DNA from: Escherichia coli
GTDB lineage: Bacteria; Pseudomonadota; Gammaproteobacteria; Enterobacterales; Enterobacteriaceae
NCBI GenBank assembly: GCA_902500205.1
Contig: GCA_902500205.1_4868.1
Reading direction: 5' to 3' (one strand)
Length of the DNA: 64,000 nt
In this document: piece by piece, positions 493 through 13,088 of the stretch
Layout: each line of letters opens with the position of its first letter
Position numbering within the stretch: position 1 is the first letter of the stretch
Made by a program: the position numbers and the translations under genes
Notes under the pieces: model-generated
The model's input: only the letters and a program-made list of their open reading frames with translations
Databases searched by the model: none
Told to the model about the DNA's origin: nothing

Positions 493-1041
493 ATGGCAGT
501 TATCTCTGCAAAAGACCAACTCGTCGCGCTGTTTAATGCTGCAAACAGCGGGCTGTCCAGTCCGTTAACTTCTGCTGACGTTACATTCGGCGCTGTTGCT
601 GACTATTCACCAGCTGATTCTGGAGACACTCGCAACTCCAAACTTACCATCACCGCCACTGCGGAATCCGCTAACTTTACTGGCGAGAAAGAGCTGCATT
701 ATACCCGTCTCAATTCATTGAACATCATCGGTGCGAAAGCAGTGACCGCTGACCAGGCAGAATGGGATACCGATGATGAAGTGCTTGCTTTTGTCAACGC
801 AGATCTAATTGCCGCCGGTAAAACGGAAGATGCGTTTGCATTGTCTGAACTCACCATTACACGCGAGGACGGCAGCAGTGGTGAGAAAATCATCACTGTT
901 AAGGTGAAAGAAGGCCACATTAAATACCAACCTGCCAGCCTTGCTGTTTATACAGTAACGCAGCCAATCGTTAAAACCGACCTGAGCACCACCAATGGTG
1001 AACTGGACGGATTCGACGGCAAAGGTCACGCTGTCATGTAA
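493..1041 (+). CDS. Hypothetical protein (182 aa), possibly virion-associated
   Basis: ATG preceded by GAGGAAACA RBS-like sequence; Thr/Ser/Ala-rich product; followed by a strong terminator. Confidence 0.6.
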   Translation: MAVISAKDQLVALFNAANSGLSSPLTSADVTFGAVADYSPADSGDTRNSKLTITATAESANFTGEKELHYTRLNSLNIIGAKAVTADQAEWDTDDEVLAFVNADLIAAGKTEDAFALSELTITREDGSSGEKIITVKVKEGHIKYQPASLAVYTVTQPIVKTDLSTTNGELDGFDGKGHAVM

Positions 1042-1121: not shown

Positions 1122-1793
1122 TTACATGCCGAGTGATTCGGACAATGTTTTTAAACCGGTGTAATCGCGCTTTTCAGCTAACTCACGGATTTGGCGTTTG
1201 TTATCTGCCATTGCTGAGTGCAACACCTGGTCGCGTGCAACAATAGCGCCCAACAACGCTTTACATTGGTCTACTGTAAACGGACTGTGCTTAGTATTCA
1301 GCGTATCGAGCCAGTATTCTGGTGCGGTATCTGCCTGAATGTATTGACCGAGGATGGTACGCGACGATTCATCGGCTTGAAAGTGACTACCTTCAAACTC
1401 GATATAACCATGACGCACATCTTCGTAGCGATGGTCAAGTTCCAACAGCATCTTCTGCACGTCTTCGTAAATGTAACGTGCGGTAGATTTCAGATTCCCG
1501 CGAATTTCGTCGAGGTCAATCTCCAGCACATTAGCAATAAACTCTTTCGTGCGTTTCAATGTGAAGTTAGCTTCAATCTCCGACATCTCATACAGCTTCA
1601 TGCGTGCCAGGGCTTCTTTATCAGACATCCCTTCGATGAGATGGTAATGGAGTAATGCACAAAATCCGGTACGACCCTGATCCTGCGCACCGATTCGTTC
1701 CATGAAATTGCCGTGACGATCAATCGGCAAATCACGCTGGAAATAACGGGCGCGGATCTCTTCGTTCGTTAAGCTTTTGTCAGTAACAGACAT
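1122..1793 (-). CDS. Hypothetical protein (223 aa), last gene of the radical SAM cluster operon
   Basis: ORF track; co-oriented with and overlapping the upstream gene; no motif recognised. Confidence 0.55.
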   Translation of the reverse strand: MSVTDKSLTNEEIRARYFQRDLPIDRHGNFMERIGAQDQGRTGFCALLHYHLIEGMSDKEALARMKLYEMSEIEANFTLKRTKEFIANVLEIDLDEIRGNLKSTARYIYEDVQKMLLELDHRYEDVRHGYIEFEGSHFQADESSRTILGQYIQADTAPEYWLDTLNTKHSPFTVDQCKALLGAIVARDQVLHSAMADNKRQIRELAEKRDYTGLKTLSESLGM

Positions 1794-2335
1794 TCGTCCT
1801 CCTCAATCAGGCCAAGTTCTAACAACAAACCGAAGTCCAGCATCTGGAAGTCCTGATCGAGGTTACCGGCCCACAACAGAGAAATGTTGTGTTGCTCTTC
1901 TTCTTCCAACTGCGGGAGCAGGTGTTCTTCGAAGATTTGACGTTCTGTGTAATAAGCGTCAACCGGGTTATTGGAGCGTAAGTTACGAATACGCATCCGC
2001 GGGAATGACAAGCCCAATGCCACTAAACTTTCAGGACTGGCTTCATCAATAGAGTGACGTAGCAGTTCGATTTTGTGGCGTGGGTATGCAAGCAGTCGCT
2101 TCTCAAAGCCAGGGTTGCGCTTTTCGATTTCCGCGACAGACTCGTGTCCTTTCTCAACGCAGTAGACCGGGATCATCACATTCAGCCCGTATTTAATCAA
2201 CAGGCTTTGGATTTCATCAGTGAAGTCTTCCCCTGCCACAATTGCGTGCACATTGTACAGCTTGCTTTTGCGCAGGAAGCGATCGACCAAGTGCAGTTTA
2301 CGCTTCGTAAAATTGTGAATCAGTATTGACTTCAT
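1769..2335 (-). CDS. Hypothetical protein (about 189 aa), cluster-associated
   Basis: ORF track 1769..2413; start moved to internal Met (MKSILIHNF) which has a GGAG RBS about 7 nt upstream by my reading; no motif recognised. Confidence 0.5.
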   Translation of the reverse strand: MKSILIHNFTKRKLHLVDRFLRKSKLYNVHAIVAGEDFTDEIQSLLIKYGLNVMIPVYCVEKGHESVAEIEKRNPGFEKRLLAYPRHKIELLRHSIDEASPESLVALGLSFPRMRIRNLRSNNPVDAYYTERQIFEEHLLPQLEEEEQHNISLLWAGNLDQDFQMLDFGLLLELGLIEEDECLLLTKA

Positions 2336-3626
2336 TCTGGGCTCCGTTTTGTAATTTTTCTGCTTCAGCACGTTGGCGTACACAACGTGAACAATAGCAC
2401 ATGGATTTATCATGCAAATCTGATGCGCGGGTCGTACCAGTTTTCTGATACCAATATTCCGCCGCCATCAGCTTCGCAGTAGTCCAACCACACTGACGAC
2501 GTTCGGCGTGATACGCTTTACGGTCTTCCAGTGTACCTTCACCGTTTTCGTACGATGCTGCTGCGCAGCTACCGCAACTGTGTTTCATCGGACACCCTAA
2601 ACAGGTTTCTGGGTAGTTGGTGTACTGCGTTTGAATCTCTTCTAACAGCTTACCACCGTCCAGGCTCACAAACTCACGACCGACCAGTTCTGCTACAGCA
2701 GAACGGGAAGTTACCGTGGACATGAAACGGTTACAACCGTAAATCTTGCGATCAAAGCCGAGACAGGTCATGTGCGTCAACGTACCGCAGTACGGTTTCA
2801 GGCGTTCTGGGTCGAGACGAACAGAGTCGTCATGTAAGAGTTTGTCACGCCAATCCGGGTCCCAAGTTGCCATAAAGTTCAGGCCATCCGGGATGATGTG
2901 TGTAATCGTGTTACGCGGGTTGGTGTGCAGACCCTTCTCAATCCAGTAGTCCATCACGTCCATCATCTGGTTCGCGATATCCAACGCCATATGGCGCGGC
3001 AGGATATCTTCGTACGTTACGTTACCAGAGATGGTACCACCGCCGGACATGTCAATTAACGATTTCATGCTGGCGGCATAGTGCGGCAATGTATCGATCG
3101 TAAACGTCGCCTTTACGCCCAGCTCAGCGATGCCAACGCTCTTCAGGTAATTGTAACCGCGTACCGCAGCTTCGTACGACCCTTCACGCGTCGTGGTAAA
3201 GATACGATATTTGTCATGGACTTCAGGTAAACCATCGATGGAGACCCCAATAGACAGTTTGTCTTTCCAGCGCTCGATAATTTCTTTGTTCAGCGGTCGG
3301 TCCAGAAGTGTACCGTTCGTGGAGATACTGAACATATACGGGCGATTGTGTTCTGCGCATAACTTCTCTGCGGTTTCAAAGGCCGCCAAAAGAAGTTTAG
3401 GCTGCATGAACGGCTCACCACCGATGATATCGATGATGACTTCAACGTTCGGGATATCTTTATCGCGCTCGAAACAAGCGTGGATAAAATCAATCACGTC
3501 TGCTACTTTGTTGTTACGCGGATATTTACGCTCGTAGCAGTATTCGCAGTCCAGGTTACATGACAAGTTAGTCACAACCTGATACGTGCGTGGTGTGTAC
3601 TGGATTTGCTGTTCGCTATTACTCAT
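2298..3626 (-). CDS. Radical SAM enzyme with SPASM-type C-terminal domain (442 aa)
   Basis: N-terminal CNLDCEYC (CxxxCxxC radical SAM cluster motif); C-terminal Cys-rich segment CLGCPMKHSCGSCAA and CYCSRC typical of SPASM auxiliary cluster domains; its start overlaps the stop of the upstream radical SAM gene. Confidence 0.85.
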   Translation of the reverse strand: MSNSEQQIQYTPRTYQVVTNLSCNLDCEYCYERKYPRNNKVADVIDFIHACFERDKDIPNVEVIIDIIGGEPFMQPKLLLAAFETAEKLCAEHNRPYMFSISTNGTLLDRPLNKEIIERWKDKLSIGVSIDGLPEVHDKYRIFTTTREGSYEAAVRGYNYLKSVGIAELGVKATFTIDTLPHYAASMKSLIDMSGGGTISGNVTYEDILPRHMALDIANQMMDVMDYWIEKGLHTNPRNTITHIIPDGLNFMATWDPDWRDKLLHDDSVRLDPERLKPYCGTLTHMTCLGFDRKIYGCNRFMSTVTSRSAVAELVGREFVSLDGGKLLEEIQTQYTNYPETCLGCPMKHSCGSCAAASYENGEGTLEDRKAYHAERRQCGWTTAKLMAAEYWYQKTGTTRASDLHDKSMCYCSRCVRQRAEAEKLQNGAQNEVNTDSQFYEA

Positions 3627-4533
3627 TGTTCGCCGCCCGTTTACGCTTAGCAGAAATTACACGGTTGATGTAGTTATACGCATCAACGCCGATAGAACGC
3701 GCCAGGCGATTACAGCCGACTTCCAATATCTCTGGCGCGTTCTGAATTTGCTCCTGCGTACCGTCGGCGTTAAGCCACAGCACTTCACTGCACGTGTTGC
3801 ACTCGGTATCGAACATTTTACTGATCGCAAGCCCACATTCAGAATCGTTCTGCATGTTAAGGCGTTCGATATTGTCGAGTATTTTCCAATACCCGTACAT
3901 GAAGTTCATGACGTGGTCTGGCGATAACGGTTTCGGCATCATCGCATCAAACAGCAACGACATACCACCTGGACGGTAATGATAGATTGCTCGGTGCAGC
4001 TCGATGAAATCTTCGTACCAGCGTTTATCGCCTAACTGGTCACGCGTCATCACACCCCAGGTGTAATAGTTGTCCAGCTCGTACAGCACTTCCAGCGCTT
4101 CGTGATTACCACCGTTTACAAAGTTCATAAACGGACGTTCCGACTTCTTGTAGCCGTCAATGGACACAAAGATAAGGTCGAACTGTTTCAGCAACGGCAG
4201 ATGTGATTTACGCATCTTTAAACCGTTGGTGTACATGTGATGACGGAGGTTCGGATGAGACTCCTTCAACTCATTCACGAAGTCTTCAATCTTGCGCTGC
4301 GCTAACAGCGGCTCACCGCCCGTCCAATGAATCTCACCGATATCCGGATTCTTCTCTAAAATCGAGAGAATCTCTTCACGTTGAAACTCACGAGAAGTAT
4401 CTTCTCTATCCATGTAATAAGCCCCTCCACAGAAGCTACAGTCTAAGTTACACTTAGAAGTTGCGACAACCGACAGAATTGACGGTTTGTCGTACAGTTC
4501 AGACGAGATCCTGGATTCTACTTGATCTGTCAT
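3619..4533 (-). CDS. Radical SAM enzyme (about 304 aa), second maturase-like protein
   Basis: CNLDCSFCGG radical SAM motif; C-terminal Cys motifs (ECG...ECNTC...GC) suggest a partial or twitch-like auxiliary domain. Track start 4569 is probably a non-ATG codon; internal ATG (MTDQVES) with GGAG RBS preferred. Confidence 0.8.
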   Translation of the reverse strand: MTDQVESRISSELYDKPSILSVVATSKCNLDCSFCGGAYYMDREDTSREFQREEILSILEKNPDIGEIHWTGGEPLLAQRKIEDFVNELKESHPNLRHHMYTNGLKMRKSHLPLLKQFDLIFVSIDGYKKSERPFMNFVNGGNHEALEVLYELDNYYTWGVMTRDQLGDKRWYEDFIELHRAIYHYRPGGMSLLFDAMMPKPLSPDHVMNFMYGYWKILDNIERLNMQNDSECGLAISKMFDTECNTCSEVLWLNADGTQEQIQNAPEILEVGCNRLARSIGVDAYNYINRVISAKRKRAANNE

Positions 4534-4555
4534 TGCAGGTTGCTCCAGTATATTT

Positions 4556-5443
4556 TTAAATATAATCAATGGCGAATAAAGGATCTTCGTCTACATTAGC
4601 GCCAGGCACCAGTAACATCGGGTCGTGATAGGCAGCTAAAATTTTGTTCAGGTCGGCATGTCTTTCGTTCAAGCGTTTCAAATCGGCCAACGTAACCGAA
4701 CGACTACGAATCTCAGAAACAGCTTCTGCTTCTTCTTTCGTTAAATCCACCTTCGTTAAGAGGAAGCTTACCAGCTTACTCAAATCCGCTTCTGTCGCCG
4801 GGTAATCCCCATATCGGGTTTGAACCAGGTGTTGCATCCACGGCTTACGAATACGTTTGGTGATTTCGAAATCGTCAGTCAGCGCATACCAGACAGAACG
4901 CTTTTTATCCCACACGAACTTATAGCTATACGCCATCATGTCCGCTAAACGGGTGATGCCGAGTTCTTTATATCCCTCGATATCGATGTACGGTTCGGTG
5001 TCGAAATACGTTTCCGTATCGGCAGGTACCAGTACAAAGTAGTAAGGGAATGAGCCCAGATAGTCCGGACTCCACCAACGGCGCGCCATCGGTTTTGCTT
5101 CGAGTTCGTCAAACGGTGTAAACATCAGTTCTAAATCGACACTGTTGTTCAAAATCCCTTCACTGAAGAAATACTTACCGTCGACTAACACGCCACGAGA
5201 GTTACCATCGCCGTTAAAGATAACGATGGCCTCTGCAACCATATCACGGATCTTAAACGTATTTTCTACGGTGTAGTTCTTCTTGTCGGTCAAGAAGCGA
5301 CCACGAACCTTTGGCCACTCACCAGGAATCTGTGCAATCAGTCTGACTTTGTCAGCGAGGTGTGCACGCACCGAATCTGGGGAAGATAGATGCAGCGGGT
5401 GGTTGAATGTGGTTTTATACGCAAGATGCAAATCGTTTTTCAT
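4556..5443 (-). CDS. Hypothetical protein (295 aa) between the precursor genes and the radical SAM genes
   Basis: ORF track; GGAG RBS upstream; no recognisable motif; position suggests an accessory or recognition role. Confidence 0.55.
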   Translation of the reverse strand: MKNDLHLAYKTTFNHPLHLSSPDSVRAHLADKVRLIAQIPGEWPKVRGRFLTDKKNYTVENTFKIRDMVAEAIVIFNGDGNSRGVLVDGKYFFSEGILNNSVDLELMFTPFDELEAKPMARRWWSPDYLGSFPYYFVLVPADTETYFDTEPYIDIEGYKELGITRLADMMAYSYKFVWDKKRSVWYALTDDFEITKRIRKPWMQHLVQTRYGDYPATEADLSKLVSFLLTKVDLTKEEAEAVSEIRSRSVTLADLKRLNERHADLNKILAAYHDPMLLVPGANVDEDPLFAIDYI

Positions 5444-5465: not shown

Positions 5466-5672
5466 TTATCGATTCCCCGCTCCACGGCTACAGCTTCCGC
5501 TGCAGGACCAGCTACACCCACCATTACAGTTATAGTGAGAAAGCGGTAAGCCAGCCAGGTTATTTGTGGTCGACACGGTGCCCTGGTTAGCGATATAGTT
5601 GTTTGCCTGTGCGGTTGTAATGTAACCTTCTGCCGTAACGAGACGGTTTCGAATAGTCTTGAGACTGATCAC
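5466..5672 (-). CDS. Cys-rich precursor-like peptide A (68 aa)
   Basis: GTG start with GGAGG RBS by my reading; N-terminus MISLKTIRNRL resembles paralogs B and C; short C-terminal core SHYNCNGGCSWSCSGSCS. Confidence 0.6.
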   Translation of the reverse strand: MISLKTIRNRLVTAEGYITTAQANNYIANQGTVSTTNNLAGLPLSHYNCNGGCSWSCSGSCSRGAGNR

Positions 5673-5687
5673 ATAAGCCTCCGTCGG

Positions 5688-6092
5688 TTAGGAGTTAGGA
5701 CCTGAACAACCACCAGAGCACGCACCTGAGCAGTTTGCGGAGCAGGATTTACCACAACCCCCAGAACAGCTGCCTGTGCACGTGCCGCTACAACCACCAG
5801 AGCACGAAGAGCTACAGCCCGTGCAGCTGCTGCTACAGCCTGATACACAGTTTGCCGAACAAGTCGACCCACAACCGCCCGTAGCAGACCCAGTACATCC
5901 GCCAGAACAACTCGAGCAACTAAAAGAGCATGTGCCACCACAGTCATAGTGCGAACGGCCTTGACCTGCGAACAAGTCGGCGTTATTCGTAGCTTTATTG
6001 CGAATGTAGTTTTGCACATTCGTGGTGTTCTTTAAAGCGTTTGCATCGATCGCGTTTAATCGGTTATTCAGTTCTTTTAATCCAATTGCCAT
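5688..6092 (-). CDS. Cys-rich precursor-like peptide B (134 aa)
   Basis: Leader-like N-terminus MAIGLKELNNRL; junction motif SHYDCGGTCSFSC followed by about 20 Cys in C-x3-C repeats with S/G/T/A/N spacers. Confidence 0.7.
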   Translation of the reverse strand: MAIGLKELNNRLNAIDANALKNTTNVQNYIRNKATNNADLFAGQGRSHYDCGGTCSFSCSSCSGGCTGSATGGCGSTCSANCVSGCSSSCTGCSSSCSGGCSGTCTGSCSGGCGKSCSANCSGACSGGCSGPNS

Positions 6093-6360
6093 TTAATCCC
6101 CCTTAGCGACCTGAACAGCCACCGGAGCAGGCTCCGGAACAACTGGAAGAACATGAGCCACCGCAACCACCTGTGCAGTTACCGGTACAGCTACTACTGC
6201 AACCACCAGAACAACCAGAGCAACCAGAACAGTTACCGCCACACGTCGAAGAACAGCTACCGATACAAGAAGCAGAACAGCTTCCTGAACAGCTCGAACA
6301 GCCATGCGAGCAACCGTTAGAGCACGTCCAAGAACATGTCCCGCCGCAATCTAGCTGTGT
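5700..6360. repeat. Low-complexity codon repeat tracts (Cys/Ser/Gly codons) inside precursor genes B and C
   Basis: Reiterated short codon units create long spurious ORFs on the opposite strand and in other frames (track ORFs 5669..6019, 6093..6305, 6173..6508). Confidence 0.6.
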
Positions 6361-6495
6361 TTTCGTCCAACCCCCAAATCGGTCTGCCGCGTTATGGGCT
6401 TTAGAGGCCACTTGCGCGTCGATACGGGGGCCTGTCGCCATGTTAGCTTCGACTATCTGGACGCGGTTTCTGACGTCTTTAATAGATATCGCCAT
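6103..6495 (-). CDS. Cys-rich precursor-like peptide C (130 aa)
   Basis: Leader-like N-terminus MAISIKDVRNRV; junction motif DCGGTCSWTC followed by about 21 Cys in C-x3-C repeats. Confidence 0.7.
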   Translation of the reverse strand: MAISIKDVRNRVQIVEANMATGPRIDAQVASKAHNAADRFGGWTKTQLDCGGTCSWTCSNGCSHGCSSCSGSCSASCIGSCSSTCGGNCSGCSGCSGGCSSSCTGNCTGGCGGSCSSSCSGACSGGCSGR

Positions 6496-6560: not shown

Positions 6561-7763
6561 TTACTTAGTACCCGCTTCAGCTTGAACATCGTCGCGCGAG
6601 GTGAGGTTGTTGTTAACGTGAACAGCAGCCTGCACAACACCGCCATACTGTTTATGGAGGTAATTCGGGTGTGGGTTATCCGCAGCCGCATGGTTCGCCA
6701 GATTCTGGTTTGCCTGCGAAATTGCGTTGGTGTTGTTTACAACCTGAGTTTTAAGACTGTTGATTTGTCCTTGCAGGTTATCAATTTGCTGTTGGAAGTC
6801 TTTGCCCTGATTCTCAAGATCCGTGACACGCTGATTTGTTTCATTCAGCGCAGACTGAAGATCGTTAACCTTCTTCTGTAATTGCAACACCAGAGAATTA
6901 AGGTTAGCTAATGCTAACGACATTTTCTGGTAATTTTGAGCAACCACGTTAAGCTGGTCGTTCCACGCGGCTAACGAAGCCACAATTGCATCGATGCGTT
7001 GCCCCAACGCTGTGTCTGCTGCTCTTAAGTCGCCGATATCTTTGATAGTGGCGTCAATGGCAGTCTGTACACTTTGAATCAGAGCACGAATCTCCGTCTC
7101 CGTCAGGCCATTAACCTGATGAATGTCGAGATTGTGTACGTTACCTTCGGCGTTGATGTGGGTATTTAAGGCGTCGAGGAAGTCGTTTTTCAGACCACCC
7201 AGAATACCTTTAATTTCTTCCAGCTGTACTGCAGAGCCGGAGTTAATCGCATCTTTAATCCCCGCGAGTACGGTAATGATATACTCAAAACCGTAGATAT
7301 CGCCAAGGTCTTTATACGTCGGTGCGGACGGGAACGTATCGGGTACGTTCCGAAGATCCTTGAAGTCCACCACGCGGTCTTCAATTTTCAACGACGCAAT
7401 CGCTTGTCGGATGCCTTCGACGTTCGCGGACTGAAAACCACCGACAACTTGCGCAGAGACTTCGATATCAGTAGGAATGGCCGTGTTAGTTACCACCACA
7501 CCCATGACCACTTCGCGGTTCTTGGTCATTTTCTGATATGCAGTATGTGCAAAAATCAGCTCGTAGTCTGTACCGCGTTTGTACGGGTAGACACCTGGTT
7601 TATTCGCAGCCGCCAAGCGGAAGGTATCCGCGTAGAAAGCTCCGTCAGGAAATGCAAAAGCCCGGTTAACTTTACCAGAACCTAACGTAATACGCCGCGT
7701 AACGGCGTTCGACGTTAATGTCCCGGTAAGGTCGAGCGGGTACTGATAAATGATTTCGGCCAT
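6561..7763 (-). CDS. Tail-fibre-like protein (about 400 aa) with coiled-coil region
   Basis: Shares the N-terminal module (..RGTDYEL..) with the three large fibre proteins; central heptad-like Q/N/L-rich segment; C-terminal NPHPNYLH motif. Start moved to internal ATG with GGAG RBS. Confidence 0.65.
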   Translation of the reverse strand: MAEIIYQYPLDLTGTLTSNAVTRRITLGSGKVNRAFAFPDGAFYADTFRLAAANKPGVYPYKRGTDYELIFAHTAYQKMTKNREVVMGVVVTNTAIPTDIEVSAQVVGGFQSANVEGIRQAIASLKIEDRVVDFKDLRNVPDTFPSAPTYKDLGDIYGFEYIITVLAGIKDAINSGSAVQLEEIKGILGGLKNDFLDALNTHINAEGNVHNLDIHQVNGLTETEIRALIQSVQTAIDATIKDIGDLRAADTALGQRIDAIVASLAAWNDQLNVVAQNYQKMSLALANLNSLVLQLQKKVNDLQSALNETNQRVTDLENQGKDFQQQIDNLQGQINSLKTQVVNNTNAISQANQNLANHAAADNPHPNYLHKQYGGVVQAAVHVNNNLTSRDDVQAEAGTK

Positions 7764-7810
7764 TGCCAAACTCCTTTGATTGGGGCTTCCTTGCCCCATA
7801 GCGCTAACTG

Positions 7811-10800
7811 TTAGGTACGGAACATAAGATTGACCTGGATAATATCAGGCTGTTGCCATCCTCTCTCGTTCACCCAATCGTGCGCAATCGTTAACGTAAG
7901 ATCATCGCCATCCCACGCCACGATCGGCGGTGGGAATAAACCCTGAGCGCCCGTGGTAACAACCGGAATTGCACCCGCCACATCCACAAACGTGTAGCTA
8001 CGGCTGTTCAAAACAACTGGTGTGCCGTAGGTCTCTCCCCCCAATGGTAAGATTTGAATCTTACTATCCGAAAGATCGGTGGTGATTGGTAGTCCCCCCG
8101 CGTCCGTGAAAAGCCAAGAGCAAATATGCTGGTTGGCCATCTCAAGCGCTGGGGAACTCAACACAGCAGAGAAAGTAAACGTACATGGCACGCCTGCGGG
8201 CAGAGAGTGCTGTTTGTGATACACGGTATGTGGTGTTGGCATTAGCACTTCTGGATTTTCTTCAATGTTAACATCCTTACCTTCCGCCTCGACGTTGTAT
8301 AAAAATCTATCTACCGTATCCCATGGGGCGATGTTGACATTAAAGGTCGTTTCTACTCCCGGTGTACCTGGGACGACGAATTTACTTTGTATCACCACTA
8401 TCATCATTCCTGAGGTCGGAGAGAAAGCAGGCGTAGGGATACCCACCCACTCCATTCCCAACGATGCCGCTTCACCGTTCTCATCGGCCGTTACCGTCGC
8501 AATTGTTGTAGGATGTTTCCAAAACGCCCCCGACTTGTTTGCCTGAGTAAACGCCGGCAAAGTTTTCAAGCCTTCGAAACGTTTGGAGACCATCGGTTTA
8601 CCGCGACGCTGTGCGTCAGATACGGTATAAAGCAACTGACTATCCAGATAGCCTTTCGTAGCATCGATAGACAAAGGACCCATCGCTTCTTTACGCAATG
8701 GTGCCAGTCTGCCCGTTGCCGCATCCCTTCCCACTTCCACATCATGCTTATTCTCAACCGCCGCATGTTCCAACAGTTGTTTCACCGCCCCCAATCGCTT
8801 AGCATGTTCGACGTTAGTCTCGACGACTCGCGACGAGCCCGTTTTAACATACCCGATATAGAGTTCCGTTTCAGTGTCTGGATGTTGAATCACGTCCATT
8901 ACGTACTTCGGTGTACCATTTTCTACCTTGGCGTGCAGGTAGAATGTCCGGTTCTGATGGTTTGTTGGAAATGCTGCGCTGAGGTCAATATACCACGTAG
9001 GCAGCTTATAAGTGCTCGAGCCGAAACGCAGGTCAACTTCCTCAGTCACATATACCAGCCAACCTTCAGCTGTTTCCACACCAGCAATGACAACCGATTC
9101 AGTCGGGCCACTAAAATTAGGAGCCGCGACAAAATCTCTCGACGACGTTGCGATACCACCACAATAGACGTAGTCGAGAGATGAGTTGTGTAGCATCACC
9201 TGATCACGATGAGCCAGATAAGCTGGGCTGACTGGAGTGTGTGACGGTGCCATACGTCCAACGCCGTGTGGAGCAGAAGAACGCGTCCAGGTACCATTAG
9301 ACAGCGTAAGACCAACAGCGTAGTTAAGCGCACCCAAGTCGCCAATCAGGCGCAAGGTTAACGTGTGTGGAAGATACAACCCGAACTGCGTACCATCTAC
9401 CGACACCAGTGTAGGTTGTCCCGGCCGGCGTGTTTTTCCTCCCGTTATCTCACCCAACGTAGCATAGTTCAAGTCATAGTCGAGGTTGTTATAGAAGTCA
9501 AACAAAGCCAATATCGCTGCGGGGAATGTTACCTGCCCGTTGCTGATTGTTGGTTTCAGTGTAAAGTAGTAGATATCCAACACGTTAACGTTGTTCACAG
9601 TACGCGTACATGCTACTTGTGCTAACGTGAGCGGTGTGGCCGTACCAATGCCGATGAACCAAACGGAGAACAATGCCTTTCCTGCGTTATTTGCGGCAAG
9701 GATAAATTCCGAAGCATAACCATTCGCAGCGCCTGCCGGTGCACCGTCGATGATCATCTGCTTCATCTTATTCCATTCGGCTTGTGACAGCGTCAACCGA
9801 TCGGCATGAATCGTGAAAGTGCCAGAAACGTTGTGGTAAGGGAATGTTTCTGGCCCTGTGCAATACCAGCCGTTTAACTCTGTACCAGGCGACGCCGGTG
9901 TAACAATGTGGCACATCTGCGACAGATTCTCGTACGTGGTAGAATCCACTACACGACGATTGTTAGTTGGTCCATACCCCGCTTTACCTGAGTAAGTGGT
10001 GTTCGGATCAAACTCAACTTCAATTGCCAAACGGGAACGTGGCTGTGACAACCAGATAAGTCTGGAATTCGCTCCCAGAGTCAGCGGATACGCCATACCC
10101 AGCTCGTAGATAGAACCACGACCTTGGTTTAACGTTACCGCACTAAACCTTCTGGCAGTGAAGTTGTAGTCGCACGACAGGTACTCGTACCAACTCACAC
10201 CGTCGTCTAACGTGGTAATCGTGACAATTGGCATTAGGTCACGATCGCCGGCATGTCCTTGCGAAACGATATATTTGTCTTGCGATGTTGCAAAGGTTTG
10301 GTTATTAGCTTGACCTTCGCCCCACTTCCGGCTCGGAATCCCAATCTCAGCACCACCGTTATAACGAACCGCGGTAAGATCAGCCACAATAGGGAATCGA
10401 TCAGCCCCTTCCAGCGTTACCGTCATTGAACTGCAATCAACAACAAAGCTTGACACCCATTGTTTAAAGCTAATCGTCTGCCCTGTGCTGGAGGCAAACC
10501 AGACTGTTGGCGTTAAACCAACACGAAATTTCAGCCCATCAACACCAATCGCGTGATTACACTCAGGACCATGTACAAAGTTGATTGCATTGTTCCACTT
10601 CGCTAACGCGTCTGCGTAGATCTGTGTAACTGGTGCTGGGAGCGCATCGGAAGGTGCACGTTTCTGTCCCTGTCGCAGATAAACGTTTTCACCCGACGTT
10701 AATATCCCGCCTGTTAACGCATCCGCCACAAACGTGTTGCTACCACCCGGATTAAGTTCGTTGAGTGCGATGCTACGCATACTCACGAAATAGTTACCGG

Positions 10801-12994
10801 AGGTAAGCACCGTACGCAACAGGTAGACACGTTCATTACAAACAATCAAATCGTCTGTAGAAGCGTTTGGAGCCCACGGTGCTGTCGTTACTGTGCCCGC
10901 ACCATTACCGTTCTTGTAATCACCCAACACCACTTTAACAACACGATGATGTTTTGCATGGTCAATCGTCCCATCGAAGATGACCAAGTAGTACGCACCG
11001 TCACTGCCTAAGCAGATCATTGCATCTGTACCGGTAATCACAATAGCAACCAGATTCACCCCAGGATACGCCGACATTCCAGCGGGTCGATAACGTACGG
11101 ACGTCTGCTGCATATTTTCCAGCGTATTGCTTGGCGACACATCGGCATAGGCGTAATAGATAGTCCAGTCACCTGGTGGATTCCCGTTAGAACCGTTACG
11201 GAGCGAGTAAACCTTACCAGACTCGTAACGCGCCAAACCTTTCTGCCAGGTTTGGTTTTTGGTATACCCTTCGTAGTTCCCCTGGACTGGTATAGGCAAG
11301 AAGTTATTGTTGCCGTACGATGATCCGCCGACAGTCCATGCGGGCAACAGCGTAGCAATCTTGTCATTCAGTGTGTCAATCTTTTGTTCAAGCAAGAAGC
11401 CCTGACGCGAAGTGACCATCTTATCCGAGGTAGTGTCGATTGCATCCCACAGTTTAGCCAAACCTGTAACAGACGTGGATGCGTACGGCACGTTATCGAG
11501 ATCTGCAATGGTGTGGGTGTGCGTTGTAAGCGCTTTGCCTGATAGCACGGTACGCAATGCGTTAGTAACTGGCTTTTCTAACGGTCCGGTATTGTTCATC
11601 TTCTCAATACCGAAATCTGCCGCGGTTAAGGTCAGATGCATCTGCCCGTTTGAATCTAATACAAACCCTTTACCGTTGACTGTATACGTGTCGTCCACAT
11701 ATCCGTCGAGTTTGTTCTTCAAGTCAGTAACAGCTTTTTGGGAAATCGCTGTGGACGCTGCAGCGGACGCCGAAAGGTTAGTAATCGCAAACAAACCCTG
11801 CACAGTTGTGGTTGCTGCAGGCAGCTCCGCATTCATGTAAAGTTTGTTTGTTTCTTTACCAGAGCCGTAAATCTTCAACGTGTCGCTGGACTTGAAGTAG
11901 GCGTTTGCTGGAAGTATCTTCACCGAGGTCAAGTACATCTTAACCATATCCGGTGTAACAAGATACACGCTATTATACACAGGTGCAAGCACACCCGCAT
12001 CATAATCGCCCCACTTGTCACCTGCTTTACCCGAGTGAACCCAAAGCGTGTTCAGACCAGCACTGAACTCCGTAGCGATGCCCGGTTCGTTGTTATCCTG
12101 GTCAGCTTTTAATACCAGCGGTTTTGTCGAGGTGATGATGAACTTCTCACCCTTCATGCTGATAACGTGACCAGACGTTGTTTGGAACGTAATCGCGTCG
12201 TTATTCAGAACACGCATACGGCCCAGTAAATCACCCAGGGTATTATCCAGAAGCATGTCAACGTGTTTCTGTTGGATGCCACTGGTAGACATTAACGTCA
12301 CTAGCTCTGCCAGGGTACGTCCGAATGCCTTAGTCGCATCTACGGCTTTGCCGAGTACCGGGAGAGCGCCAATGTCACCGCAGGTGTAACCATGTGCATT
12401 TTTAATCAGGTGGTGTTGATACATTTCGTCATCAAACACCTGCTTACCGTTCTGATAAATCAAATCGGTAACTTCGGCAAAAGCCTCATCCAGCTCGTGG
12501 GCGCGCTCTAAAATACCCAGACGGATATCTTCCAACGCCTTTACGATTTCATCGCGAAGAATCGCTTCTTCGAGGTCTTTTGGCGGGTCGATTGGCGAGA
12601 TAATCGGCGGATATTTCATCAGCTCAGACCAATCGCAGTTACGCGGGTCTTTCATATCTGTCTTAACCAGATACTTGCCGATTTCAGAAGCAGGGATGCG
12701 ATACTGTCGACCAACCGACAACAACTCGTATTCTACCTCTGTGGCGTTCAGCAGCATTATGCTGCCGTATATTGCATCGTTCTCAGCCTCGGCTAATTCC
12801 TGGAAGTAATGTCCTAGGAAATAATCGAGACCTTCTATTAACTTGCGTTTGGTTCCGGTTGTTTTATCGGTAACGGTTAACGTTAACCCGATGCGATAGA
12901 ACGGTGCTTCGACGGGAATGACCGCCGAATAACGGTTCGGGTAAGTAGCGGTACTGAGCGTACCGTTAAACTGCGCCGCATCTTCTCTCGGCAT
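7811..12994 (-). CDS. Large tail fibre protein (about 1727 aa)
   Basis: Shared N-terminal module; THTHTIADLDNV and SVTGLAKLW motifs resembling T4-type long-tail-fibre HxH and G-x-A-x-x-A-T repeats; start moved from track 13039 to internal ATG with GGAG RBS. Confidence 0.7.
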   Translation of the reverse strand: MPREDAAQFNGTLSTATYPNRYSAVIPVEAPFYRIGLTLTVTDKTTGTKRKLIEGLDYFLGHYFQELAEAENDAIYGSIMLLNATEVEYELLSVGRQYRIPASEIGKYLVKTDMKDPRNCDWSELMKYPPIISPIDPPKDLEEAILRDEIVKALEDIRLGILERAHELDEAFAEVTDLIYQNGKQVFDDEMYQHHLIKNAHGYTCGDIGALPVLGKAVDATKAFGRTLAELVTLMSTSGIQQKHVDMLLDNTLGDLLGRMRVLNNDAITFQTTSGHVISMKGEKFIITSTKPLVLKADQDNNEPGIATEFSAGLNTLWVHSGKAGDKWGDYDAGVLAPVYNSVYLVTPDMVKMYLTSVKILPANAYFKSSDTLKIYGSGKETNKLYMNAELPAATTTVQGLFAITNLSASAAASTAISQKAVTDLKNKLDGYVDDTYTVNGKGFVLDSNGQMHLTLTAADFGIEKMNNTGPLEKPVTNALRTVLSGKALTTHTHTIADLDNVPYASTSVTGLAKLWDAIDTTSDKMVTSRQGFLLEQKIDTLNDKIATLLPAWTVGGSSYGNNNFLPIPVQGNYEGYTKNQTWQKGLARYESGKVYSLRNGSNGNPPGDWTIYYAYADVSPSNTLENMQQTSVRYRPAGMSAYPGVNLVAIVITGTDAMICLGSDGAYYLVIFDGTIDHAKHHRVVKVVLGDYKNGNGAGTVTTAPWAPNASTDDLIVCNERVYLLRTVLTSGNYFVSMRSIALNELNPGGSNTFVADALTGGILTSGENVYLRQGQKRAPSDALPAPVTQIYADALAKWNNAINFVHGPECNHAIGVDGLKFRVGLTPTVWFASSTGQTISFKQWVSSFVVDCSSMTVTLEGADRFPIVADLTAVRYNGGAEIGIPSRKWGEGQANNQTFATSQDKYIVSQGHAGDRDLMPIVTITTLDDGVSWYEYLSCDYNFTARRFSAVTLNQGRGSIYELGMAYPLTLGANSRLIWLSQPRSRLAIEVEFDPNTTYSGKAGYGPTNNRRVVDSTTYENLSQMCHIVTPASPGTELNGWYCTGPETFPYHNVSGTFTIHADRLTLSQAEWNKMKQMIIDGAPAGAANGYASEFILAANNAGKALFSVWFIGIGTATPLTLAQVACTRTVNNVNVLDIYYFTLKPTISNGQVTFPAAILALFDFYNNLDYDLNYATLGEITGGKTRRPGQPTLVSVDGTQFGLYLPHTLTLRLIGDLGALNYAVGLTLSNGTWTRSSAPHGVGRMAPSHTPVSPAYLAHRDQVMLHNSSLDYVYCGGIATSSRDFVAAPNFSGPTESVVIAGVETAEGWLVYVTEEVDLRFGSSTYKLPTWYIDLSAAFPTNHQNRTFYLHAKVENGTPKYVMDVIQHPDTETELYIGYVKTGSSRVVETNVEHAKRLGAVKQLLEHAAVENKHDVEVGRDAATGRLAPLRKEAMGPLSIDATKGYLDSQLLYTVSDAQRRGKPMVSKRFEGLKTLPAFTQANKSGAFWKHPTTIATVTADENGEAASLGMEWVGIPTPAFSPTSGMMIVVIQSKFVVPGTPGVETTFNVNIAPWDTVDRFLYNVEAEGKDVNIEENPEVLMPTPHTVYHKQHSLPAGVPCTFTFSAVLSSPALEMANQHICSWLFTDAGGLPITTDLSDSKIQILPLGGETYGTPVVLNSRSYTFVDVAGAIPVVTTGAQGLFPPPIVAWDGDDLTLTIAHDWVNERGWQQPDIIQVNLMFRT

Positions 12995-13027
12995 TGCAAA
13001 CACTCCTAATCTGTAATAAAACGGAGA

Positions 13028-13088
13028 CCGCCCTCCCAATAACGGAAGGGCGGTTTACCTACGGACTACCCGCCCGTAGGCAGTCCGT
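13028..13088 (-). terminator. Inter-fibre-gene structured region, candidate partial terminator
   Basis: Two adjacent GC-rich inverted repeats (accgccctcc/ggaagggcggt and cctacgg/ccgtagg, with an alternative acggact/agtccgt pairing), then a U-rich stretch on the minus-strand transcript. Confidence 0.4.

Follow-up and report, generated by a model that had tools for sequence, protein, structure and literature searches.

The window analyzed here, a 64,000-nt stretch of contig GCA_902500205.1_4868.1 from an Escherichia coli assembly, belongs to an SPN3US-like jumbo phage (98.5% identity to Salmonella phage SPN3US across 5 kb), and it contains three tandem genes, named P1, P2, and P3, whose products end in arrays of regularly spaced cysteines. 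The reading that we favor, with modest confidence, is that P1–P3 are fiber-associated structural proteins cross-linked by radical S-adenosylmethionine (SAM) enzymes, probably through thioethers, and that they are not released as peptides. The arrays are very probably the substrates of the two adjacent radical SAM enzymes, a prediction based on the identity of the enzymes, near-threshold family matches, and a roughly 100-fold co-localization of arrays with such enzymes. The structural role is favored because no peptidase, exporter, or immunity gene was found, the arrays are fused to fiber proteins elsewhere, the genes lie in tail blocks, the array length is conserved, and P3 has kept its N-terminal part next to a shrunken core.

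The three genes are located on the minus strand at positions 6103–6495 (P1, 130 aa, ATG start), 5688–6092 (P2, 134 aa, ATG start), and 5466–5672 (P3, a short paralogue of 68 aa). The original prediction, made from the DNA letters without database searches, had described three Cys-rich peptides with aligned N-termini, a GTG start in the short copy, and a ribosome binding site for each gene, and all of these features were recovered. An alignable N-terminal segment of 48–50 residues is common to the three proteins, beginning with MAISIKDVRNRV in P1, MAIGLKELNNRL in P2, and (M)ISLKTIRNRL in P3, the last from a GTG codon. Shine-Dalgarno sequences (AAGGAAG, AAGGGGGA, and GGAGG) were found 4–6 nt ahead of the starts, one for each open reading frame (ORF), and the intergenic gaps along the trio are 10, 15, and 22 nt. 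In P1, the N-terminal segment comprises 49 aa with a predicted helix at residues 5–20. Tryptic peptides expected from these segments include VQIVEANMATGPR, IDAQVASK, and LNAIDANALK.

The first cysteine is residue 50 in P1, 51 in P2, and 49 in P3. The junctions, TQLDCGGTCSWTC in P1, SHYDCGGTCSFSC in P2, and SHYNCNGGCSWSC in P3, share the pattern C-x-G-x-C-S-(W/F)-x-C, which in P1 reads LDCGGTCSWTC, and a wider pattern, L/F-x-G-G/x...Y/L-x-C-x-G-x-C-S-W/F-x-C, was also recognized in all three. C-terminal arrays of C-[S/T]-G-[S/T/G] units contain 21 cysteines in P1, 20 in P2, and four in P3, which agrees with the predicted conserved junction followed by differing cores with spacers almost only of S, G, T, A, and N. 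The spacing between cysteines is nearly always four residues, with a few at three and one at eight. The cores are built from S, G, C, T, N, and A, with at most five residues of other kinds, and their Cys content is 25%, compared with 1% in the neighboring genes.

All six reading frames are open over the low-complexity DNA of the arrays, so a test of the coding frame was needed. An orthologous trio of two long proteins and one short protein was identified in Erwinia phages that represent four genera, namely Huxley, Asesino, Phobos, and Derbicus. In codon alignments, the ratio of nonsynonymous to synonymous substitution rates (dN/dS) was 0.03–0.18 in the Cys frame, with saturated dS, and above one in both alternative frames; the P1 frame alone gave 0.08–0.18. 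The Cys frame is the coding frame of P1–P3. In addition, all three proteins matched phrog_6085, with E-values from 1e-41 to 3e-24 (9e-41 for P1). With the Cys content of the cores, these dN/dS values and the orthologous trios place the pattern far beyond chance, and they bear out the original prediction of real paralogous genes in which a conserved N-terminal part is followed by Cys repeats at the C-terminus.

The same comparison did not bear out the predicted expansion of the cores and of the copy number. Only weak short repeats were detected in the array DNA by Tandem Repeats Finder, and all six Ser codons are in use, which indicates that the arrays are old and selected and not recent products of slippage. 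The number of cysteines was 21 in P1 of every genus examined and 20–23 in P2, which points to a conserved array length rather than an expanding one, and the trio itself is an old, fixed triplication. The N-terminal segment of P3 is the most conserved of the trio, and it is kept even in the Derbicusvirus orthologues, where the array is down to two cysteines.

The SPN3US reference records contain neither P1 nor P3, and they cover P2 with gp166, which is in a wrong frame. This gp166 (positions 5684–6019, minus strand; open frame 5669–6019) overlies P2 and was rejected as a gene, as its frame showed a dN/dS above one. A homology search with P1 returned 16 proteins, none of them identical. The original prediction had proposed a database search for the junction; when a profile of the leader-like segment and the junction was run exhaustively against 1.84 billion proteins, 29 representatives were found. 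The complete segment was confined to the N-terminus of short P1/P2/P3-like proteins, and its junction half was also present within the longer fiber-like proteins P0198, P0200, P0202, and P0203. The open frames, the wrong-frame reference gene, and the small number of relatives make this family nearly invisible to protein-based mining. Two public calls of P2 homologues, P0166 and P0204, are frame-hopping chimeras that pass midway from the Cys frame into a V/A/L-rich frame, and automatic gene callers evidently mishandle such arrays. The metagenomic protein P0180 has a P3-like leader segment, the junction, and a four-Cys array followed by a beta-rich C-terminal domain of about 140 aa, and its short array looks like a linker to this distal domain.

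The original prediction had made its case depend on a modifying enzyme encoded nearby, and two radical SAM enzymes were found downstream on the same strand. The first, rSAM1 (2298–3626, minus strand, 442 aa), is a radical SAM/SPASM protein with the motif CNLDCEYC, and P1–P3 are located 1.8–2.5 kb upstream of it. Among 22 homologues, its cysteines C23, C27, and C30 as well as C280, C288, C298, C342, C345, C351, C354, and C379 are invariant. It therefore possesses both the Cx3Cx2C motif and the C-terminal Cys set of SPASM proteins, and the binding of two auxiliary [4Fe-4S] clusters is predicted. The closest relative of solved structure is the SCIFF thioether synthase CteB (PDB 5WGG, E-value 4e-37), followed by anSME. 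The alignment with CteB covers the radical SAM and SPASM domains and begins at CteB residue 102; a recognition element of the PqqD-like winged-helix type (RRE) was not found in the maturase or a partner, and that of CteB lies outside the alignment. A full-length match to PapB was also obtained (113.6 bits, residues 22–357 of 442). From the homology to thioether-forming SPASM enzymes, we consider thioether formation about evenly balanced against the other possibilities as the chemistry of the system; other SPASM chemistry may apply, for example oxidation of cysteines or formation of carbon-carbon links that involve the conserved Trp.

The second enzyme, rSAM2 (gp164; 3619–4533, minus strand), has about 304 aa when counted from the ATG at 4533, with the ORF open to a TTG at 4569. 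It contains the radical SAM motif CNLDCSFC and a conserved C-terminal CxxC...GC that resembles an auxiliary-cluster or twitch domain, and it matched only generic radical SAM cores (viperin, MoaA, and QueE-like). A search of the cluster against a library of defense systems revealed nothing beyond this generic viperin-core similarity. The start annotated for SPN3US gp164, at window position 4413, drops the CxxxCxxC motif, and the ATG at 4533 is the likely start. A 1-nt length difference from SPN3US was observed at window positions 4552–4553 (TATATTTTT vs. TATTTTTT). A frameshift in the SPN3US gene was considered and rejected, since this harmless difference falls just past the gp165 stop and still upstream of the probable start; the record simply places the start too late.

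Between the trio and rSAM2, directly downstream of P3, is a gene for a gp165-like protein (4556–5443, minus strand, 295 aa, phrog_8030). This protein had no match in Pfam or NCBIfam, and its confident AlphaFold2 model had no known structural neighbor. It is kept beside the array gene in lineages with two radical SAM enzymes, and its C-terminal half is homologous to proteins of two related loci described below, L007 and L010 (HHalign probability 97%, E-value about 1e-10). A gut-phage accessory protein of about 190 aa was rejected as a further homologue, with an HHalign probability of 0.1%. No terminator-like site was seen between the trio and the downstream genes. Promoter and terminator scans gave nothing above shuffled expectation; sigma-70 patterns are of doubtful use here, since a jumbo phage brings RNA polymerases of its own.

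Family searches placed both the arrays and the maturase near a system of CXXX-repeat proteins that comprises the target TIGR04114, the maturase TIGR04115, the paralogues TIGR04117, and PF27846. Curators named TIGR04114 and TIGR04115 as a target/maturase pair. The only NCBIfam match of P1–P3 was to TIGR04114 (tSAM_targ_Cxxx), an 18-residue Cys-rich repeat model, with scores of 19.6 (P1), 17.1 (P2), and 13.7 bits (P3) below the cutoff of 20, marginally so in P1. PF27846 was absent from the Pfam set searched with the window proteins, and precomputed matches to it exist for the homologues P0167–P0169 and P0173 and for a 568-aa protein of locus L008. For rSAM1, the best NCBIfam match was TIGR04115, with 125.6 bits in two stretches, where the cutoff of 350 was not reached; as in that family, it is encoded next to a CXXX-repeat target. 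Like the CXXX-repeat system, the window cluster has a cysteine at every fourth residue, small spacers, and an adjacent SPASM enzyme. In contrast to it, the window also has a second radical SAM enzyme, the gp165-like protein, and the CSW junction. By its sequence, the window cluster represents a divergent variant, with two enzymes, of this target/maturase family, which was itself defined in silico.

When viral contigs were scanned with the rSAM1 family, 80 loci were obtained. An array ORF was present in 71 of the 80 loci having an rSAM1-related maturase, and all 81 array ORFs were on the maturase strand, 80 of them within 3 kb of the maturase. The density of arrays was 17.7 per 100 kb near the maturase vs. 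0.15 per 100 kb elsewhere in those loci. The C-[S/T]-G-[S/T/G] unit was the consensus in every lineage. In 71 of the 81 ORFs the array was located at the C-terminus, with a median of 105 residues preceding it. The array proteins had a median length of 234 aa and a median of 30 cysteines (up to 63), and only three had 100 aa or fewer. TIGR04115 scores were 389–470 bits, above the cutoff, for the maturases of loci L049, L032, L028, and L091, and 126–157 bits in the lineages with two radical SAM enzymes.

The rSAM1 homologues with 32–39% identity belong to the same four-part module, in which rSAM1 and rSAM2 are joined by a gp165-like protein and an array protein. Synteny is retained between jumbo phages of Enterobacteria and prophages of Deferribacter and Firmicutes. 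For the pair of ORFs located upstream of each array gene, the matches across 27 non-redundant loci were to tail-fiber, tail, baseplate, and structural PHROGs, and among the top upstream families no further named category was found besides radical SAM. For example, a GpJ-like tail protein precedes the module in the Deferribacter prophage L007 and in the related contig L096, where the array ends a protein of 258–302 aa rich in HxH and 'DDRYYTETE' fiber repeats. These repeats join the array via ...LGGQAGSYYRCSDCSWTC... and ...LAGQTSGYYRCSGCSWTC..., with a junction of the form ...LxGQxxxYYRCxxCSWTC. The same pattern of a fiber-like protein with a C-terminal array was found in P0170 and P0171, both on contigs too short to reveal a gene context, and in P0198, P0200, P0202, and P0203. 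The T4-like contig L008 encodes a 568-aa protein that ends in ...TLGGQPPDFYTCGGSCSWSC... and 28 cysteines, and in the L010 array protein (271 aa), the C-terminal array is preceded by an N-terminal Pfam Phage_tail_fib domain (PF12571, 24.2 bits, cutoff 23). Weak tail-fiber family matches were also obtained for P0171 and for the array protein of L007. In locus L091, the gene order was tape measure, Dit, Tal, collagen-like fiber, array, radical SAM, holin, and endolysin; in L033, it was baseplate hub, wedge, fiber-like protein, array, radical SAM, and tail fiber. For cultured phages with other architectures, a tblastn search with P0173 gave none, and one with P0171 gave weak N-terminal matches only.

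The trio of the window is likewise placed in a tail/baseplate/fiber module, between gp168/gp167 on one side and a DUF4376 protein on the other. Directly upstream of P1 is gp167 (6561–7799, minus strand), a coiled-coil virion structural protein and a homologue of phiKZ ORF134/gp134 (supplement of PMC5105663), preceded by gp168 (7811–13039, minus strand), a 1742-aa tail protein similar to the baseplate-periphery fiber protein gp131 of phiKZ (PMC5105663). In phiKZ, gp131 and gp134 form the base of baseplate-anchored fibers (PMC13250141).

In the mechanism that we propose, P1, P2, and P3 would be co-transcribed as small proteins with an N-terminal helix, a junction, and a C-terminal array, on which rSAM1, rSAM2, and the accessory gp165 would act. 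The enzymes would abstract hydrogen atoms and link Cys sulfurs to carbons of neighboring residues, and the resulting thioether staples would make the flexible array a rod or knot that is covalently laddered and resists proteases. The modified array would stay on its N-terminal part, which is probably not a disposable leader, and would form a component or appendage of the tail-fiber apparatus beside gp167 and gp168, a virion location that we infer from the gene context. The N-terminal helix and junction may represent the end of a fiber shaft, with the array, once stapled, as its distal element. Such a C-terminal fiber module would, in SPN3US-like phages, have been split off as three small proteins. 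As a tentative extension, somewhat short of an even chance, the C-[S/T]-G-[S/T] array would be a stapled tail-fiber domain or mini-fiber in general, and the whole TIGR04114/TIGR04115 family at heart a phage and prophage system of fiber maturation.

Several observations weigh against a fiber-associated structural role with SPASM-type cross-links. The score of rSAM1 is far under the curated cutoffs of every characterized family. P1–P3 have no recognizable fiber-attachment domain and no Pfam or PHROG tail match, and AlphaFold2 on P1, with an alignment of nine sequences, gave a mean predicted local distance difference test score (pLDDT) of 43 and no fold. Locus L097 encodes an array protein of only 110 aa, followed by two radical SAM enzymes, one small ORF, and a DUF4376 protein, in an upstream context that is not tail-like. 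The gp161–167 products are unmentioned in the main texts and supplements of the SPN3US proteome papers (PMC5105663, PMC5694885), and gp163–167 in the full text of PMC7411985. Because P1–P3 are missing from the SPN3US annotation, the published proteome searches could not have found them.

The original prediction had likened the trio to the precursor families of peptides that are made on the ribosome and modified after translation (RiPPs). In such a classical system, the leader would be removed, either through a host protease or by cleavage at the F-x-G-G motif, and the cross-linked cores released at lysis, to act, for example, as bacteriocin-like, anti-competitor, metal-chelating, or host-manipulating products. 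This reading, including its released product, is considered unlikely, with several observations in its favor. The layout of three paralogues resembles leader and core, peptide-maturase-type SPASM enzymes are adjacent, so that a gene-encoded precursor stands beside a dedicated modifying enzyme as in RiPPs, and the full-length leader-like segment occurs only on short proteins. A motif F/L-x-G/A-G, eight residues ahead of the first cysteine, resembles a double-glycine cleavage site and likewise counts against retention, and the small L097 protein outside a tail context fits a precursor as well. True RiPPs with leaders of about 80–100 aa exist (NHLP, Nif11), so length by itself does not disqualify the N-terminal part as a leader. 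However, in family and defense library searches, neither the window cluster nor syntenic clusters yielded a leader peptidase, an exporter, or an immunity gene. The junction and array end fiber-like proteins of 185–570 aa elsewhere, a tail-module context was found in at least five lineages, and the array length is conserved. The persistence of the P3 leader-like segment after most of its core was lost would also be odd for a precursor. The RiPP prediction thus stands as to the adjacent maturase-type enzymes, and it falters on the missing peptidase, exporter, and immunity genes and on the occurrence of the arrays at the ends of fiber proteins and in tail modules.

Two further readings fit the association data poorly. 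In one of them, the arrays are unmodified, metallothionein-like ligands of metal or iron-sulfur clusters, such as the metal core of a trimeric fiber or a cluster donor for the radical SAM enzymes. The 25% Cys content with small spacers and the lack of an autonomous fold in the AlphaFold2 model would suit this function, as would the HxH repeats that the array follows in L007 and L096, since HxH repeats bind metal ions as iron sites in T4 gp37-type fibers. It is nevertheless quite improbable: it leaves unexplained the roughly 100-fold co-localization with peptide-maturase-type SPASM enzymes, four of which are bona fide TIGR04115 members, and the strict four-residue register with its S/T-G-S/T consensus is unlike known metallothioneins, which use CxC and CxxC. 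More improbable still is that the genes are coincidental neighbors, where the arrays would be ordinary disulfide-rich or low-complexity structural proteins and the radical SAM enzymes would act on a nucleotide, a cofactor, or large fiber proteins. Such independence would agree with the purely generic matches of rSAM2, but the array-maturase association statistics, the curators' pairing of TIGR04114 with TIGR04115, and the synteny between jumbo phages of Enterobacteria and prophages of Deferribacter and Firmicutes all speak against it.

Comparison with known systems provided further context for the stapled-fiber reading. No publication on the chemistry of the CXXX-repeat family or its connection to phage tails, nor on a phage version of the cysteine-array/radical SAM system, was found in the full-text literature, whose coverage leaves out most subscription journals; phage radical SAM enzymes were mentioned generically only (PMC12801897). 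The ranthipeptide maturases CteB and PapB have in common with the rSAM1 system a SPASM architecture and Cys-rich substrates. However, rSAM1 lacks an N-terminal RRE, its putative substrates have 4–21 cysteines (elsewhere up to 63), and the arrays offer S/T/G acceptors with no Asp or defined Thr acceptor. The PapB (freyrasin) substrates, for example, carry repeated C-x3-D units. CteB and PapB make small, free peptides as their products, unlike the proposed retained array.

A retained modification is known from QhpD, a SPASM enzyme of quinohemoprotein amine dehydrogenase maturation that installs several Cys thioethers in the small protein QhpC, which is kept in a larger assembly and not released. 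A match of rSAM1 to QhpD was detected (TIGR03906, E-value 4e-15), while QhpC differs from the arrays in being an enzyme subunit with three thioethers to Asp/Glu, without a repeat, and not viral. The His-Xaa-Ser system (HxsA, HxsB/HxsC, and HxsD) likewise combines a short-period repeat, a SPASM enzyme with a shorter radical SAM enzyme, and one accessory protein of unknown function, where the repeat is HxS instead of CxxxC. It is bacterial and likewise uncharacterized. Matches of rSAM1 to HxsB (E-value 5e-21) and of rSAM2 to HxsC (E-value 6e-12) were both far below cutoff. The metal-stitched fibers of T4 (gp37 and gp12) also have a periodic ligand residue along the fiber, and the HxH repeats of L007 and L096 directly precede the Cys array; the T4 fibers, however, need no modifying enzyme, and we know of no description of Cys arrays with radical SAM enzymes in fibers of this type.

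If the favored reading is correct, RiPP-type radical chemistry would, to our knowledge, be seen for the first time in the maturation of a viral structural protein, and the widespread 'orphan' maturase family TIGR04114/TIGR04115 would gain a biological role. Covalently laddered fiber tips could influence particle stability, host range, and phage engineering. SPN3US is a tractable system in this respect, as amber-mutant genetics and virion proteomics already exist.

Further genes were observed around the module. Downstream of it in the window are a gp162-like protein (1769–2413, minus strand, phrog_7988, function unknown), whose SPN3US version is annotated shorter and whose gene is syntenic with the module in Erwinia phages, and the DUF4376 protein gp161 (1122–1793, minus strand). 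The module of the distant L097 is likewise followed by a DUF4376 protein (9248–9919), which may be a further conserved partner. On the opposite strand, the module is adjoined by a 182-aa ORF (493–1041, plus strand; SPN3US gp160) with a match to the virion structural family phrog_4862 and weaker matches to phrog_2935 and phrog_1037.

Additional observations were made in the related loci. In L097 (2269–4537), two S-adenosylmethionine lyase genes are located a few kb upstream of the two SAM-dependent radical enzymes, an apparent conflict in SAM use. In L033 (10026–13257), a tail-fiber gene and then a reverse transcriptase (phrog_1423) come right after the array/radical SAM module, and the latter is probably part of a diversity-generating retroelement aimed at the fiber. 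Three or four radical SAM genes were found in some loci (L064 2973–12281, L057 1009–9155, and L096 5306–8134), and L064 also encodes two very large Cys-rich proteins, one of 551 aa with 52 cysteines and one of 421 aa with 78 cysteines, which suggests more elaborate versions of the system.

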